Source of the DNA: Lophium mytilinum
Lineage: Eukaryota
DNA: 64,000 nt
Assembly (NCBI GenBank): GCA_010093605.1
Contig: MU004184.1
Location: 2,304,801-2,368,800, forward strand
Direction of reading: 5' to 3'
How positions within the stretch are numbered: the first letter of the stretch is position 1; each line of letters begins with the position of its first letter. Of this stretch, positions 7,228 through 14,027 are shown one piece after another. The position numbers were made by a program, and so were the translations under genes. The notes under the pieces are model-generated. The model searched no databases and was not told the DNA's origin. It saw only the letters and a list, made by a program, of their open reading frames with translations.

Positions 7228-8336
7228 TCAGTGCTCGTCCTCGCTCTCATCATCGTCCTCGTCCTCTACTACCCTCTCCCCTTTCACGAACACCTCCGCC
7301 TCCGTTCTCTGCAATCCTGGGAACCCATCCGCCAATCTCTTCAATACTTCTTCTTGTACCAGTTCGAACCGCCTTTTCGGGTCCCTCATGTCATTTAAAT
7401 ACCTGAACGGGCGCCGAAACGCTGTCATGTACTTCTCCTTTGTCCAGCCCCACTCAATCGTAACATGCTTTGGAGTCGCGGCAATCAGAGACTGCATCGT
7501 TGCTTGCAGCTTGTCAGGCACGTGCTCAGATTCCCTTTCAAAGAATTTCAACAGCGCTCGCGGGGTCGCGCCGTTGTATATTATCACCACGCGTAGCTCC
7601 CGGAGGCTGCGCATGTAGTGCAGTGCACGAAAACGAGCAGGGTCGGGACCCGAGCGACCTAGGTCGGTGTGCCCATCGAGAGGATTGAACCTTGGAGAAG
7701 TCTGTTTGACGTTCAATTCGAAGATCATGACAAGGCGCTGGATGTGCTCAATATCCCAGTTGTGGTTGGTGACCCGGACGTGGTTTAGGAGGCCGGCGTA
7801 AGGAGGTGGGAAAGACTCAGGACCGGGGTTATAGCAGCCGGGGACATCGAAATGACACGGGTAGTGAGAATAGTGCAGCCAGGCCGAGGAGGAGGCAAGA
7901 ATCAAGCCGAAGGTGAGCTGGGGGTACAGCGCCTCTTTCACTTCCTTGCTGACTTGCTTGCAGATTTCCAAGATCGCAAATTTCTTGAGATGAGGCGCTG
8001 GACCTTGAAGTGATAGTCTCTCCCCATACAGCGTTGCGCCTTTGTCCTTTACTAGCTTTGATTTCCATAGAACTATGCCTTGCTTAAGAGCGAGATCGTA
8101 GACCATGTCGCGGAGTTCGCGCGGGAGATCCAGAAAGCGGAACGCGCCGGTAGGCTTCCAGTGAGAGTGCTTGCGCTTCTTTCTGCGCTTCGTTGGATAA
8201 TCATGTGGCCGGGAAACGTAGAGGATGCAGTGGGGAAGGGGGAAGGAAGGTGGGGGGGATCTTACGCAGGTGGTGGCCTCCCAGAAGAGGAGTCGCTCGA
8301 CGAGGAGTCGCTCGTGGTGGAAGAAGAGTCGCTCAT
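7228..8336 (-). CDS. F-box-like (FRFLDLPRELR) family protein, paralog 1 of 4
   Basis: Motifs FRFLDLPRELRDMVY, CKQV, HFDVP, WDIEHI, RFRALHYM and RTEAEVFVKG. Inferred ATG 8336 with phase-2 intron 8183-8265; an unspliced ORF from 8436 is also open. Confidence 0.8.
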
Positions 8337-8938: not shown

Positions 8939-10024
8939 CTAATACCCTCTTAAGGGCAAAACGTGCTGCACCAGACAACTCTGCCGGCAAAGCGGACACT
9001 CAGGCTTCTCCCTTGCCCAATCCCCAATGCAACCCCAACAAAACACATGCCCACAGATCGTGACGCTCGGGTCCTTCATCTCCTCCAAACAAAGCGTACA
9101 CTTCCTCTGCTGTGTCCCATTGATCCATTCCATCTCCGTCTCGTTCTTTAAATCATACCTCGGCCGCCCTAATACCTCCGTCTGCGTGATCCGCTGTAAG
9201 CTCTGCGGATCCTGCGTGTGCGCCGTCGACGACTCAAATAGCAGCGCATTATTGGCGCTGTATGCATCGGGCGCTAACGAGACTTCGACGCCATGATCGA
9301 GCACCACACTCGATCCCATCACCGATGGTGTGTTCGCTACGGTGACGGTATTTTGCATATGCAGATACGCCTGCACAGCCATTTGGAGCACGAGGAGCAC
9401 GCCGAGAACCTCGTACCCGACGCGCTGCTCGCTCTCCTCGACTTTCCGCGTGAAGATGTATCGTAGGCCCCAAATGCGCTTCCCGAGGTGGTAGTACGCG
9501 CCGCTGAAGTAAAAGGTTGCTAGCGACACAGCATAGAGAGGAGAGGGCGATGTTATCGTGTCCAGATTATGTAGGATGTAGGACTGCAACTTGTATCCCG
9601 CGCTCCCTTGCTCTTTCTGTCCCTTTCGCGCTCGCCGCCGCAGATTTGCTTCGAGCTTCGCGCGTATCCGTCTGCGAAAGGCGGGCAGAATTCGCCCCAG
9701 GCCATAGGGTACCAAGACAGTTGATATGATGTAACCTGATCGCCGCGCGAGATTGGGTAGACGACGTGTCGCGTCTTCTACTTGCACGATGTCCGTGTAT
9801 TCTTCGCCCAACGTGCGGTTGCCGAGTCCTGTGGTGAGGCCAAGGTAGAGGAGCTCGGCGAAGGTGCGGGCTTCAGTAGTATATGCATGCGCAGTACGGG
9901 CCCCGTAGAGGTTGCGGAGGATCGTGGAGAGGTGTTGCAAGAGGAGGCCTTGGAAGTAGGCGTCCTTTTGGTGGGAGCGGATTATGTCAGGGGAGGCGGC
10001 GAAAGGGTGGGTGAAGGCGGGCAT
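8939..10024 (-). CDS. PEX10: Peroxin 10, peroxisomal RING-finger E3 ligase
   Basis: Pex2/Pex12 N-terminal motifs (FAASPDIIRSHQKD, TLGEEYTDI) and a C-terminal C3HC4 RING (CTLCLE...CGHVFCWGCI...CPLCR). Confidence 0.96.
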   Translation of the reverse strand: MPAFTHPFAASPDIIRSHQKDAYFQGLLLQHLSTILRNLYGARTAHAYTTEARTFAELLYLGLTTGLGNRTLGEEYTDIVQVEDATRRLPNLARRSGYIISTVLVPYGLGRILPAFRRRIRAKLEANLRRRARKGQKEQGSAGYKLQSYILHNLDTITSPSPLYAVSLATFYFSGAYYHLGKRIWGLRYIFTRKVEESEQRVGYEVLGVLLVLQMAVQAYLHMQNTVTVANTPSVMGSSVVLDHGVEVSLAPDAYSANNALLFESSTAHTQDPQSLQRITQTEVLGRPRYDLKNETEMEWINGTQQRKCTLCLEEMKDPSVTICGHVFCWGCIGDWAREKPECPLCRQSCLVQHVLPLRGY

Positions 10025-10430
10025 TCTCGCCTTTGAGATGTATTCGGAGAGGAGGAATGGACGGTCGGACGGAAGAGGCGATTGATGTGATGTAGAATGG
10101 CATGAGATTCAAGCTATATCATGGAGTTGAGGTTCAGGGATCCGACCTCGGCATTTCTGCCAACAGTGACTAAGCGGTCCTTCTATGGTTATCACTCTTC
10201 CAACGCTGCATCGCATGTTGATTCTATCTAATTTGTGGACTAAAAGGTAGCTATCTGCTAGCCGCCATACTTGTAAGTATATCTTCTAAATACCTAATAC
10301 TATAAAGGCGAATACTCGCTCGCCTGCCTCTACCTCTCCTTAAGATCTTAGACTGTCCCGTAAACTTCAAACAGCGTTGCCATGTATTTTGTGGAGATGT
10401 ATATATAGTAAAGGCAGAGTTATATAGATT

Positions 10431-10825
10431 AAAAAAAGAATTTTCAAGGAGCAAAACACCACCCTCGTAAGAGGGTGTAGCCACCTCGGAGAGGTTTCTT
10501 TAGATCCATCCTGGAGGTCCGGTCCCAATGTTTCAATCCATCGAATCTTCACCGGCCACTCTCAGCCTCACGCACCAACTGCATACGGCCTCTTTACCGG
10601 CTTCCAAGCCTCTCATGCCGCCTCCGAGCTGGTTCCGAAGAATCAGCTTTTAACACCATAAGTCGAGTCGAGAATCGCCGACTGCTGGGGTCGAACGCCA
10701 GACCAACTTCCAAACTCAGGTGAGGTTGTCGACGGTGGGTAAAACCCACCTCGCGAGGTAAGTGCCTGGATTCGGCCGCGGGCTTACACTCGGTGTGGCC
10801 GACCAGTTGAGCTGCTGGGAAATTA
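10431..10825 (-). ncRNA. Candidate RNA polymerase III-transcribed structured non-coding RNA (identity unresolved; SRP RNA not excluded)
   Basis: On the minus strand: TATATAA (10859-10865), A-box-like CAGCTCAACTGG (10803-10814), B-box-like CGTTCGACCC (10688-10697), C(UUCG)G hairpin (10628-10647), long 5'/3' complementarity and a T7 run (10431-10437). No credible ORF. Confidence 0.55.
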
Positions 10826-11868
10826 GTAGATGAAAAAAGGGTTCAGATTTTACTTGACTTATATAGACCGAGGAGTGCGACGCCGCTTTAAGAATTCAAT
10901 TAAGCTTAACGTTAGGACCTCTACTAGCACTCCCCATTGCTGGCACTAAACGAGTTGAAGATGAAGAACAGCACTTTCTTTTCTGTTTTGTCGTAGCAGT
11001 TCCGGATCTTCATGGTCGCACGCCCTCACTTCCCATGGTCTTACGGACATCCTCAATCACGGATGCCCCTAGCACACCCTCTCCGAAGCCCGCCACACCA
11101 TCCTCCTCTGTCAAACTCGCGCCCGCCTCCTTGCCCGCCACTCCACCCACCGCTTGCCTGCCTCCCACACCTACACCTCCACCACGACCACGGCCCCTTT
11201 ACCCACCTCCTCCGCCCGCTCCGCCTCCTACCCACCGACCCCATCACCACGTGCGCCGCCCGATCGAACCGCGTCATCTACAGCCTCCTCTTGATTTCCA
11301 AAACCCTAACATCTACACCAACGTCTTCGACTTCAACCCCACCTCACCAGCTTCCTTCTCCTCGTTCTCGTGCTTGGCTCGCTACTCCAAACCCCGATCT
11401 GCTTCACTCTAGGTAAACAGGCAGGCTGCTCACGCTGTAGTCTGAAAAGGGGTTGAGTTTATGAGAAGAACATTTTGTAGACATGGATGGCTCTGGTGCG
11501 CGGATTTACAATGCCATCGAAAGGGAGTCATCGCGAGAGTTGTCAATAGGCTGAAATGAGATGGAGAATATCTACCTCTATCTAGTACTATCCAGTTCCC
11601 GTTTCTGGCTCTTTGTATTATGGCAGTGAAGACTCATTTGTATCCCATTTCGGATTCTCGCCGTTCGTGACTTATCGTCCAAGTGTATGCCTGAGCATAG
11701 CACGTCGATCAGCATCTGCGCATTCTCATCTTCTATCGATCGGCGTCTTTCAGGACAATATTATAACTCAGGTCAGCTTTGACTCCTTTAAGGAAGTCGA
11801 AGACACCGTCTTCAGCGGCACGGTACGGGGCGAACACTGCTACGATGGCAGCCTTTTCAATCTTTCCT

Positions 11869-13725
11869 TTAATCACTCTCACTCCCATCCTCGCTATCAC
11901 TGCTCTCCGAAGCATCAGCCCCAACAACAGCCTGCTCCTCCTCTCCCTTCTCTTCCGCCCTTCCAGACATGACAAAGCTAGTCAAGCACGTGATCCTAGC
12001 GCCCGTTTCGAAGGTCCCTAGTAACGTGCCTACCTGCTTCGCGTCTGCATTCTTTTCTAGCTCTCCGACCCGAATGCCCCATACGCGTACAGCTCCATCG
12101 CTGCTTCCAGTGACGACGAATAAAGGTCCGTTGACGAACGGTGCGAGGATGGTGAAGTCTTTGACCCGTCCGGCGATTCCGGCGAGCGCGCCGCCGAGAG
12201 TTGCAATTGGAGAAAGGGAGGGGAGGTCGAGTGCTGGCGCTTTGGCGGGGAGTGAGGTAGTAGGAGCAGGAGATGAGAAGGGAGAGGTGGTAGAGGTGGC
12301 GGTAGGGTAGAAGAGGATGCGGCCGTCTTCTGTTGAAAGAGCTAGGATGGGAGTAGTAAAGGCAGTTGAAGGTAGATAGCGGAGTTGATGAAGTTTTGTC
12401 CTGGGGGTGGGGAGGATTATGGCGGAGGGTTTGGAGTCCTGAGGGTGTTAGTATACCCAACTCTCATCAAAGTATATTGGAGGCGTGGCGAAGATATTGA
12501 GGAATGAAGAGAGAAATATCTGACTCACCATGCCAAACACCACGACCCCCCTTTCAAAGCCGACCACGTACTCCTCTCCAGCTGGATCCCATTCCACCTT
12601 CCTACCCTCGCCGGTGCCCCACCGCCCCTCCCCAGCTGCCGCAAGCAAGTCCCGGCTAAAGTTCAACACGCCTGCCTTCTTGCCCGTCACCAGATTCCAT
12701 AATCGCATGCATTTTTCACCCTTTCCCACGCTCAGCATGAGCTTCAGACTCGGATGCACAGCGATGTCGTTCACACCGGCCGGCACCTCTCCTGGCGCGG
12801 CAGTGTCTCCACTCGGCCGCCCCACCGCCTTCGGCACCGGTGCACGAATAGTCGATAGCGGTGTCCAGTCGCGTGTCCGGGTAATTGCAATCGTGTTGTC
12901 GCCAGCCGCACTCAGCAGCTTCGCTCGTGTGGGGAAGGCTAGGCACGTGACAGCAGACGAGTGATGAAGGAGGGCGCCGAGTTCACGGTTGCGGGGGTTC
13001 TCGGAGATGGAGGTCCCAGCTAGCGTGGGGAGTTTTGGGATGGAGGAGGGATTCGGCGGAACGGTGGAGAGGTTGTAGAGGTTGATGCGCTCGTCGGCGG
13101 AGCCAGTGGCTAGGAGGACCGATTGGGCGGAGTTGGAGCCTGGGGTGGAGGCAGAATTGAGGGGCGAGACGGCAAGACATCGGATGGAAGAGGTGTGGGC
13201 GGTGAAGAGGAAGGTTTCTGTGAAGGGGAGGGTGGGTTTGGAGTCTTTTGAGGTGGTGTCTTTTTTGGCGATGGCTGAGCTGGTGCCATTCGTCGCATCT
13301 ACAGCCTTGATATCGCCGTTGGTCTGAGAGGTCGAATTGTCCTGAATAGCTTCATCCTCAATAGATTCGTCACTGGGATCCTTGGGCTCTGACGCGTCTT
13401 TTGGTTCCGGGATGCTTCTTGAAATGACTGCGGTGAAGCCATGGAGTGTCCTCTCATATGATCCCGTGATAATCTGGACAGTGGCCGAATCGACATCCTC
13501 TCCCAATTGAACAACCGCCGACTCAGGGACGACATCCTCGACAACTGGGGTCTTCTTCTGGACAGCTCCATTCTCTTTCTTCTTGGCATCTCCATTGCTC
13601 TTCCTAAGGGCAGGCGTCTGTGAGTTTGCTGTTTGGCGTGCAGGTTTACCGGCGTCCTGTTTCCCCCTCTTTGTGCTCGCACGCAGTGCTACACCCTCCA
13701 CGCCGTCAAGTTTCCGTTTCGCCAT
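11869..13725 (-). CDS. MAK11: WD40-repeat 60S ribosome biogenesis protein Mak11/PAK1IP1
   Basis: MAKRK start; motifs IITGSYERTLHG, FTAHTSSIRCLA, ATGSADERINLY, HPSLKLMLSV and LWNLVTGKKAGVL. One intron at ~12441-12528; the second exon ends in an acidic tail (SSDSEDGSESD*). Confidence 0.92.
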
Positions 13726-14027
13726 GGCTGTTCTGTCCAAGTCGTAGTATTGTGGTGTATATGCAGTTGTAGATGGTGAAGTGTGAGGGTGGTACTTTTT
13801 TTATTCTGCCACGCTTGGGCTGACCGCCTCCCCGTCGTGCCAGTCTTATCGGGGCCAGGTTCCGTGGTAGCAGGCCATCTCTCCCGCCGACACCACCGTC
13901 TCTTGTGCTCGGTGCCATCACGACTTCATCACATTCCATCAACAAACCCCTCCAGCTCCGCCCCAAATCATCGACCCTGGACGTACTCGCGAATGACGGA
14001 TGTCGTTCAGGCAGGTTCGGCCTTCAT

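Follow-up and report, generated by a model that had tools for sequence, protein, structure and literature searches.

The minus-strand stretch of ~380-400 bases that lies 5' of PEX10 in the window (the whole 64-kb stretch of DNA analysed here) appears to be a conserved gene for a folded RNA. PEX10 is encoded on this strand too, and its start (10024) lies 400-800 nt downstream of the stretch. The feature is more than a chance pattern, because its limits match the limits of cross-species conservation and because the substitutions found in relatives keep minus-strand pairing. Among the identities proposed in an initial annotation, that of an undescribed fungal Pol III non-coding RNA is best supported, by the conservation, by strand-specific substitutions that keep the structure, by an invariant B box and by the lack of any Rfam match. 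An undescribed, constrained family of Pol III RNA genes is the best reading of the unit, which we hold tentatively, at slightly less than an even chance. The coordinates of its features are collected in the table.

Table. Sequence and structure features of the predicted RNA gene, in 5' to 3' order of the minus strand
Feature	Position	Strand	Basis or remark
TATA box TATATAA	10865-10859	minus	sequence; ~28-34 nt 5' of predicted start
Predicted RNA 5' end, A10831 after T6-C run	10831-10828	minus	putative start
A-box-like element CAGCTCAACTGG	10814-10803	minus	sequence
5' hairpin CUGGUCGGCC...GGCCGAAUCCAG, UGUAAG in loop	10807-10766	minus	MFE, centroid and MEA folds
UGUAA	10788-10784	minus	sequence
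Hairpin GGUGGGU-UUU-ACCCACC	10750-10734	minus	sequence and predicted fold
Conserved core, 91-97% identical in organisms B, E, F	10718-10544	minus	X3 record 11, X10 record 1, X14 records 4-7
B box GGCGTTCGACCCC	10699-10687	minus	loop of short CUGG/CCAG stem
Invariant 38-nt stretch	10679-10642	minus	candidate functional site
C(UUCG)G hairpin AGCUG-A-UUC-UUCG-GAA-C-CAGCU	10648-10627	minus	sequence; kept in 4-sequence consensus fold
Domain closed by GCCGGU/GCCGGU, with helices GGCC/GGCU and UAUGCA/UGCGUG and invariant GAGAGUG	10601-10551	minus	predicted and consensus folds
Variable 3' domain, three small hairpins, ends in T4	10543-10453	minus	predicted fold
Hairpin CACCCUC-UUAC-GAGGGUG	10477-10460	minus	within 3' domain
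Internal T4	10456-10453	minus	sequence
T7 run	10437-10431	minus	strong Pol III terminator or fail-safe terminator candidate

Read from the sequence, the unit has a hybrid type 2 Pol III layout, with a TATA box near -30, A and B boxes and a T-run terminator. These motifs could be read directly on the minus strand as first annotated, while the distance from A to B box, given there as ~105 nt, measures ~115 nt from start to start. The A-box-like element fails the strict A-box pattern TRGCNNANNGG, which matches nine other places in the window; its homologue in organism F, at a loose alignment end (10803), is a more canonical tRNA-type A box. The exact B-box core GTTCGANNCC (10696-10687) is not significant alone, because the pattern occurs three times in the window with 2.17 occurrences expected by chance. 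The remaining two matches (40232 and 47110) are not tRNA-like by eye. In the contigs that cover it the B-box core is unchanged, with a single listed exception, an F contig in which the final C (10687) differs. At the 5' end, similarity to a non-syntenic relative (X14 record 8) extends to 10828. The listed differences from relatives reach up to 10806, and the TATA box lies outside this range. TATA-like boxes are present on both sides of the unit. The interior of the predicted unit contains T4 runs only and no run of five or more; T4 is a weak terminator in some yeasts. The terminal T7 run reads T5-C-T4 in one F copy and T3-A-T3 in organism C (change at 10434). Taken singly, the Pol III promoter motifs are compatible with chance frequency.

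The comparison with relatives covers a small sample of ~13 short contigs from four runs, in which the window organism is A, and its statistics are modest (P about 0.01-0.04). With 10350-10950 as query, contigs of four other organisms match ~10433-10828, a span that coincides with the predicted RNA, and only in the close relative C do the flanks align as well. Between A and C, the unit body has diverged by ~2% and the flanks by 10-20%. On the 3' side, three differences in 133 nt (10471-10603) compare with 12 in 116 nt of tail and flank (10355-10470; Fisher p=0.014). On the 5' side, two differences are listed in 10727-10806, with a total of 26 over 10727-10928; 20 differences are unlisted individually, and we infer their placement on this side. 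Beyond the conserved core, the contigs of B, E and F show unlike sequence or end. The core bears one- and two-base indels among relatives, and coding is therefore ruled out. Inside the core, the 38-nt stretch has zero differences in the fully accounted contigs (X3 record 11; X14 records 4, 5 and 6). The 3' domain is 83-93% identical in F, where three contigs diverge at 10447-10453, and in E it is replaced from 10544 on by unlike sequence with a T5 run. Among 18 runs no RNA run was listed, and X14 bears an RNA label as a guess only; its contigs, one of them 6171 nt long, continue into unlike sequence, and because of this extension they are not counted as expression. For X3, X10 and X14, interpretation is confined to the parts of the stretch that their contigs cover. 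Exact-pattern scans gave no match for a 25-mer in metagenome contigs, two matches for a 20-mer in metagenome contigs, zero and two matches in genome contigs and none in viral contigs. All four loci from these scans (L001-L004) share just a 20-21-mer with the window. A TPP-riboswitch-like motif suggested by these four bacterial or metagenome matches was dropped, as those loci are without any Rfam match.

The predicted minus-strand fold consists of several short hairpin domains. The C(UUCG)G hairpin and two other local hairpins of the initial annotation are present in the sequence, and complementary words exist for its long-range pairings, although only some of these appear in predicted folds; the rod-like fold it had described is unsupported. 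By folding energy the minus strand is no stabler than its shuffles, with z -1.33 for 410 nt (8/100 shuffles equally good) and z -0.94 for the core (37/200), and the plus strand scores better in the same two tests (z -3.36 and -3.03, with no shuffle equally good). The substitutions and a paired insertion, on the other hand, preserve pairing on the minus and not on the plus strand. In the minus-strand MFE fold, 13 of the 18 substitutions at paired sites keep the pair (null 10.2, P=0.038), compared to 6 of 17 in the plus-strand MFE fold (null 5.95), and the retention differs between the strands with Fisher p=0.044. The consensus fold of the window and three reconstructed relatives over 10546-10670 has an energy of -43.4 and an SCI of 0.99 on the minus strand, versus -20.5 and 0.81 on the plus strand. 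Insertions on the two sides of the UUCG loop pair with each other: they contribute an extra C-G pair in X3 and X14 and an extra U-G pair in X10, and in the same hairpin A10630>G leads to a U-G pair. In the GCCGGU-closed domain, U10596>C and C10587>U keep the pairing on the minus strand only. The 5' hairpin retains a G-U pair with C10806>U and loses a pair with G10804>A. The MFE fold contains a long-range helix between 10720-10704 and 10644-10626; the local UUCG hairpin is preferred to it, as the paired insertions are compatible with this hairpin alone. No candidate for an mRNA-type intron within the gene (GU...YAG, by eye) is convincing, each being either too short or part of the best-conserved sequence. 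Taken as a whole, the feature as initially annotated is confirmed in part.

With the fold and the conservation at hand, two readings that do without a Pol III gene can be weighed. The first is that the motifs came together by chance in ordinary intergenic DNA, which would agree with the frequency of the single motifs and with a minus-strand fold no better than shuffles. We find this hardly credible: the cross-species similarity is confined to exactly the unit, its divergence lies below that of the flanks, and a hairpin carries a paired insertion. The chance reading is contradicted by the comparison of contigs across species. The second reading takes the stretch for conserved sequence that is part of a Pol II transcript or of regulatory DNA, such as a lncRNA exon, far-upstream or 5' UTR sequence of PEX10 or an enhancer, in which the Pol III motifs are coincidental. 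The position upstream of PEX10 on its strand would suit this, as would motifs that are each at chance level, TATA-like boxes on both sides and the better thermodynamic z-score of the plus strand. It is nevertheless improbable. The core recurs with unrelated flanks in other organisms, several times in F, and is therefore not tied to PEX10. The way in which substitutions fall speaks for a minus-strand RNA that folds, and the conserved span ends, like a compact gene, at the T runs on one side and ~30 nt downstream of the TATA box on the other.

The unit matches no described RNA family. Rfam gives no family match anywhere in the window at gathering score, and at E<=10 the searches of 10100-11200 (1.1 kb) and 10425-10845 (421 nt) return spurious weak matches only (UnaL2, isrD, CRISPR-DR9, Ocean-VII, MEG8_1). 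The Rfam check called for by the initial annotation thus found no SRP, RNase P, MRP or snRNA family at E<=10. Its suggestion of a divergent SRP RNA is not sustained, with no match to the SRP clan (Metazoa_SRP, Fungi_SRP and the others) at this threshold and with no instance, on either strand, of the helix 8 motif in the pattern it had used (AGG - GNRA tetraloop - NGCA, searched by regex). A regex search of both strands for the consensus patterns of CR-I/CR-V (P4) of RNase P finds none either, and there is no RNaseP_nuc match. Sm site and snoRNA signatures are absent from the unit by regex. Its longest uninterrupted helices have ~7 bp and it forms no long hairpin, which speaks against the milRNA precursor that was also considered initially. 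The motif of the U1 5' end, ACUUACCU, occurs on the minus strand at 10763-10756, ~68 nt inside the unit. U1 snRNA was rejected as a candidate, since this motif is altered in all covering F contigs and is not at the RNA 5' end, and since there is neither a Sm site nor a Rfam U1 match. The initial negatives for RNase P, RNase MRP and snRNAs therefore hold, except that this one motif is present but not conserved.

For RNase MRP, excerpts of PMC1796607 give 5'P4 as gaaAGuCCCC and 3'P4 as acnnnanGGGGCUnannnu, 80-500 nt apart. The unit has no match to the 3'P4 half, no 5'P4 half with a complementary partner, no minus-strand match to CR-IV AnAGUnA inside its limits and no Rfam RNase_MRP match. A GAGAG at 10563-10559 is invariant in relatives. 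It lies within a short GGCU/GGCC hairpin or loop (10567-10554) and thereby resembles the GARAR motif on the P8 loop of RNase MRP, as described in excerpts of PMC1796607 and PMC3737539. In contrast to RNase MRP, P4 halves, CR-IV and Rfam signal are lacking, and in the 4-sequence consensus fold GAGAG is unpaired, within a different domain and outside any hairpin loop. The pentamer occurs twice on the minus strand (10614 being another site) and once on the plus strand, and is therefore not specific.

A diverged or interrupted housekeeping RNA (SRP, RNase P, RNase MRP or snRNA) that the Rfam models have missed is very unlikely. Its size and Pol III layout would be like those of the yeast SCR1 and RPR1 genes, and the UGUAA near the 5' end, ACUUACCU and the invariant GAGAG with its fit to the P8 motif would suit such an RNA. 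All the other motifs searched for (CR-I/CR-V, P4, CR-IV, helix 8, Sm) and any Rfam match are missing, however, GAGAG is not specific, ACUUACCU is changed in F, and several copies per genome are unusual for SRP, RNase P, MRP or snRNA genes. Six core words of the unit, in DNA or RNA letters, do not occur in the literature searched. PMC8216456 presents alignments of 17 new fungal RNAs, among them a 144-nt Pezizomycotina 'intergenic structure 2', and the unit may be identical with one of these. Nothing similar to the unit is contained in the excerpts of PMC5640933.

Two or more of the relatives have several copies whose flanks or modules differ, as would be expected of a SINE. In organism F four different downstream flanks are observed (at 10433, 10447, 10450 and 10453), and each part is represented by several variant contigs; in organism C a copy that has diverged is present in addition to the first (record 13). 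Because the unit belongs to such a small multi-copy family, it could be a short mobile element. It would then represent a single member of a dispersed, low-copy SINE-like repeat promoted by Pol III, whose head is of the tRNA-promoter type, whose core is conserved and whose tail can be exchanged. It would have no host function, and its conservation would reflect recent spread or the element's own needs. This reading, which the initial annotation had listed, remains a serious rival through the copies and flanks in relatives, even though we consider it less likely than a gene family. The contigs with the B and E cores are short, and at the core edges they end or continue into unlike sequence, with a different 3' end in E, and a shared core with swapped modules, as in the E copy without the whole 3' domain, is typical of SINEs. 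RIP is inefficient below a certain repeat size, and the ~390 bp of the unit are near that limit.

Several expected traits of a SINE are missing at the same time. The best flanking repeat, of 12 nt with 11/12 identical, is not significant as a target-site duplication (shuffle P=0.156; 12/249 real-sequence control pairs score equally). The unit sequence has no poly(A) or simple-repeat tail. ARAGORN reports no tRNA in the 64-kb window, none at the 85% threshold and, with the threshold lowered to 75%, no calls other than those containing 'introns' of 49-369 nt; the initial statement that the unit does not fold as a tRNA is confirmed by this negative result even at relaxed thresholds. Internal A and B boxes are present in the 5' part as in a SINE, but their ~115-nt spacing is atypical and unlike a tRNA head. 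The unit is single-copy within the 64-kb window, with none elsewhere in it. A MITE was also rejected, with no inverted repeat pairs in 10200-11100. At the locus shared by A and C, the slow divergence of the body relative to the flanks makes the unit unlike a decaying insert, and the substitutions, like the paired insertion, leave an RNA fold intact on one strand. The closest described SINE-like element is the tRNA-related AfuSINE2 of Aspergillus fumigatus, and the A and B boxes, T run, size, low copy number and missing cloverleaf of the unit fit its description in excerpts of PMC5063351. Similar to AfuSINE2 in these excerpts, the unit is within 140-493 bp, has a low copy number, a terminal oligo-T, a degenerate A box with a better-kept B box and a 5' part without cloverleaf, and resides in a filamentous ascomycete. 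This likeness is one of description, and in contrast to AfuSINE2 as described there, no target-site duplication is detectable and the A-to-B spacing is ~115 nt. A further difference is that the unit body diverges several-fold slower than the flanks at the shared locus, with substitutions that preserve the fold.

Two groups of functional RNA genes offer parallels to a constrained Pol III RNA gene. Yeast SCR1 (SRP RNA) and RPR1 (RNase P RNA) are Pol III genes with tRNA-type internal boxes and an upstream TATA. In promoter architecture only, the unit is like them: it is predicted to be a structured RNA gene of several hundred nucleotides with A and B boxes wider apart than in tRNAs, a TATA near -30 and a T-run terminator. 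Unlike both, it matches SRP or RNase P RNA neither in sequence nor in structure. The rodent BC1 and 4.5S RNAs are functional RNAs related to SINEs. BC1, 4.5SH and 4.5SI are animal RNAs of 90-150 nt, and the unit resembles them as a lineage-restricted Pol III gene layout that is kin to dispersed copies yet conserved. The unit, at ~380-400 nt and in a fungus, differs in size and host, and the likeness implies no homology. The 4.5SH and 4.5SI genes are described in excerpts of PMC10137851 as having, besides A and B boxes, a TATA-like box near -30.

We infer the following model for the preferred reading, a constrained Pol III RNA gene. A gene for a non-coding RNA would extend on the minus strand from ~10831 to the internal T4 (10456-10453) or to the T7 run (10437-10431), with a predicted RNA of ~380-400 nt. 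Its polymerase would most likely be RNA polymerase III, acting at a mixed promoter composed of the upstream TATA, a degenerate internal A box and an invariant B box ~115 nt further in, and the transcript would terminate at the T runs. The RNA is predicted to fold into short hairpin domains: a 5' hairpin domain, a ~175-nt core that comprises the B-box loop, the UUCG hairpin and the GCCGGU-closed domain, and a variable 3' domain of three hairpins. Related fungi, apparently Dothideomycetes, would share the low-copy family to which the gene belongs, and purifying selection would maintain the gene. The RNA may act in trans as the RNA of a ribonucleoprotein, with the invariant 38 nt as the likely candidate for a site that binds protein or RNA. 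The family may have begun as SINE-type copies or may still seed them, comparable to the rodent BC1 and 4.5S RNAs. Stated in full, the proposal is a new cellular ~380-nt Pol III RNA under purifying selection in a Dothideomycete lineage, the RNA of a new ribonucleoprotein and of about the size of SRP or RNase P RNA, with the 38 nt as its working site and SINE-like dispersed copies spun off from it. We regard this full version as possible but speculative.

To our knowledge, few RNAs are known to be made by fungal RNA polymerase III, and nearly all of them are from yeasts. A conserved, structured ~380-nt RNA of this class in filamentous ascomycetes that is absent from databases would, if true, point to an unstudied ribonucleoprotein. 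If the family is of the SINE type, it would be a case in which a short low-copy element persists and keeps its core conserved where the fungus otherwise mutates repeats. Under either reading the unit merits annotation, lest it be mistaken for promoter sequence of PEX10.

The predicted RNA gene, a minus-strand unit of ~380–400 nt running from ~10831 to one of two T runs, lies 400–800 nt upstream of PEX10, and the positions of PEX10 and the next recognisable gene place it in a spacer of ~2.4 kb. Only one copy is present within the 64-kb window, which holds no tRNA genes. The spacer (10025–12447) also contains ORFs of 113–154 aa at 11012–11416, 11613–11972 and 11969–12310 on the plus strand and at 11996–12460 on the minus strand, none with a Pfam match. 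On the minus strand, a 402-aa ORF at 7228–8436 matches DUF7730 (23.5 bits) and 2EXR (18.5 bits), both under the cut-offs.

Features of the predicted RNA gene and its neighbouring genes (window positions)
Feature	Position	Strand	Basis
TATATAA	10865–10859	minus	read in sequence
Likely start	near A10831	minus	T6-C-A context
A-box-like CAGCTCAACTGG	10814–10803	minus	read in sequence
GGTGGGT-ttt-ACCCACC hairpin	10750–10734	minus	read in sequence
B box GGCGTTCGACCCC	10699–10687	minus	read in sequence
C(UUCG)G hairpin	10648–10627	minus	read in sequence
CACCCTC-ttac-GAGGGTG hairpin	10477–10460	minus	read in sequence
T4 run	10456–10453	minus	read in sequence
T7 run	10437–10431	minus	read in sequence
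PEX10 ORF	8939–10024	minus	Pex2_Pex12 + RING domains; ascomycete protein
WD40 protein gene (next recognisable gene)	12448–13740

The motifs and hairpins described in the initial annotation are largely right, and all hairpins it named are present on the minus strand. The promoter motifs, each alone, are without significance. The B-box core GTTCGANNCC occurs three times in the window versus 2.17 expected, and the A-box-like element does not match the strict pattern TRGCNNANNGG. The similarity to relatives reaches its 5′ limit (10828) 31–37 nt downstream of the TATA box. Because the T runs and the points of divergence vary among copies, the predicted RNA may end at 10453 or at 10431: three of the four downstream variants in organism F part from the window just past T4, and one carries T5 there; ~15 nt beyond T4 a longer T run is found in the window and in one F copy; a change at 10434 splits T7 in organism C. 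Directly downstream of T7, at 10400–10428 on the minus strand, there are two more TATA-like boxes, CTATATAAC and TACTATATATAC, ~380–400 nt upstream of the PEX10 ATG, which may represent the PEX10 promoter. One F copy has TATATATAG at a comparable distance past its own T run.

A single alignment set is the sole source of relatives: 18 runs match part of the stretch, and four of them, from other organisms (B, C, E and F), were compared with 10350–10950 at a likeness of at least 80%. For B, E and F the similarity is confined to ~10433–10828. For C, both flanks align too (10355–10603 and 10727–10928), which makes C a close relative that carries the unit at the corresponding locus. Of the 17 differences between the window and C on the 3′ side, 15 are listed, with 3 in the 133 nt of 10471–10603 versus 12 in the 116 nt of 10355–10470 (Fisher p=0.014 for body versus tail and flank). 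The 5′ side has 26 differences in total over 10727–10928, and among those listed at least 2 fall in 10727–10806 and none above 10806; the remaining ones would lie upstream of ~10807. If this placement holds, the body would be ~2% diverged versus 10–20% in the flanks (p ~1e-6). Among the organisms further removed, identity is 91–97% in the core (10544–10718), counting substitutions and gap letters per record, and 83–93% in the outer 5′ and 3′ parts of the unit, and 10642–10679 is unchanged in every fully accounted contig. Indels of 1–2 bases are frequent in relatives, which excludes a coding exon. Exact 20–21-mers of the invariant GGTGCGTGAGGCTGAGAGTGG region also occur in four unrelated bacterial or metagenome contigs (L001–L004), which have nothing else in common with the window and no Rfam match; they are treated as chance, since ~1–2 such matches are estimated per scan.

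The minus-strand fold is not more stable than shuffled sequence, neither for 410 nt (z −1.33; 8 of 100 shuffles equally good) nor for the 182-nt core (z −0.94; 37 of 200). The plus strand gives z −3.36 and −3.03, respectively, with no shuffle equally good. Taken alone, the z-scores speak against the minus strand. Our interpretation is that the Watson–Crick helices are real and that the weak minus-strand z arises because G+U-rich shuffles also fold well. Among 32 listed substitutions in relatives, 13 of the 18 that hit base-paired positions in the minus-strand MFE retain the pair (10.2 when the same substitution types are re-placed, P=0.038), versus 6 of 17 in the plus-strand MFE, where the null is 5.95 (Fisher p=0.044 for the difference between the strands). 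Pairing is likewise retained on the minus strand only with A10630>G, C10587>U and U10596>C. The UUCG loop is flanked by two single-base insertions in all three other organisms covering it, adding a C-G pair in B and F and a U-G pair in E, whose plus-strand counterpart would be a mismatched A-C. For 10546–10670, with three relatives rebuilt from listed differences, the consensus fold reaches −43.4 kcal/mol (structure conservation index 0.99) on the minus and −20.5 (0.81) on the plus strand. These figures, from four sequences at 91–97% identity, favour a folded minus-strand RNA and are supportive, not decisive.

On the minus strand, the sequence directly upstream of the B box (10704–10720) is complementary to 10626–10644 in the 3′ half of the region forming the UUCG hairpin, so that the MFE contains a long-range helix instead of the local hairpin. 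The paired insertions speak for the hairpin, but the RNA may adopt either conformation. Two copies of an internal quasi-repeat, GAGGCU-(loop)-GCCGGU-R-AAGA, lie ~43 nt apart on this strand (10546–10569 and 10591–10612), and each can form a small GGCU/RGCC hairpin. Together with a third CCGG word (10522–10516, minus) the quasi-repeat suggests an old duplication within the unit.

None of the known families compared accounts for the unit. Rfam release 15 gives no match at gathering score in the whole window, and at E≤10 only spurious weak matches on 1.1 kb and on 421 nt alone. With the helix-8 motif also absent by regular expression search, the SRP RNA proposed initially fails. The proposed milRNA precursor fails too. 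The annotation's other exclusions hold: the same search finds no RNase P CR-I or CR-V and no RNase MRP P4 halves or CR-IV (consensus from PMC1796607), and relaxing the ARAGORN thresholds still yields no tRNA-like fold. An invariant GAGAG fits the MRP 'GARAR' motif, but this pentamer is nonspecific and the remaining MRP features fail. Sm site and C box are likewise absent by regular expression. U1 snRNA is ruled out because ACUUACCU at 10763–10756 is altered in all F contigs covering the site. The plus strand of 10756–10763 reads AGGTAAGT, a perfect 5′ splice-site-like word, and CTACTAATTTCCCAG at the extreme 5′ end of the unit (10815–10829, minus) resembles a branch point plus CAG; no matching partner sites were found for either. 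Core words of the unit are printed in none of the papers searched, the supplementary alignments of PMC8216456, the most relevant screen, being outside the comparison.

The main rival, a SINE-like repeat without host function, draws on the shared core, exchangeable ends and several copies in relatives, which look like a SINE family. Organism F has four distinct downstream sequences, parting at 10433, 10447, 10450 and 10453, and 2–3 variant contigs over each part of the unit; C has a second, diverged copy; the E contig is unlike from 10544 on, then has T5; the B core is on a 187-nt contig ending at both core edges. Set against this, the best flanking direct repeat, which includes the TATA and matches at 11 of 12 positions, lacks significance (P=0.156; 12 of 249 control pairs as good), inverted repeats and a poly(A) tail are absent, and the locus common to the window and C evolves under constraint. 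We consider this rival rather unlikely and rank it below an undescribed, constrained, predicted RNA gene of Pol III type that belongs to a low-copy family, which we tentatively put forward as the best explanation. The two readings are compatible, because dispersed copies alongside a functional master gene would agree with all data.
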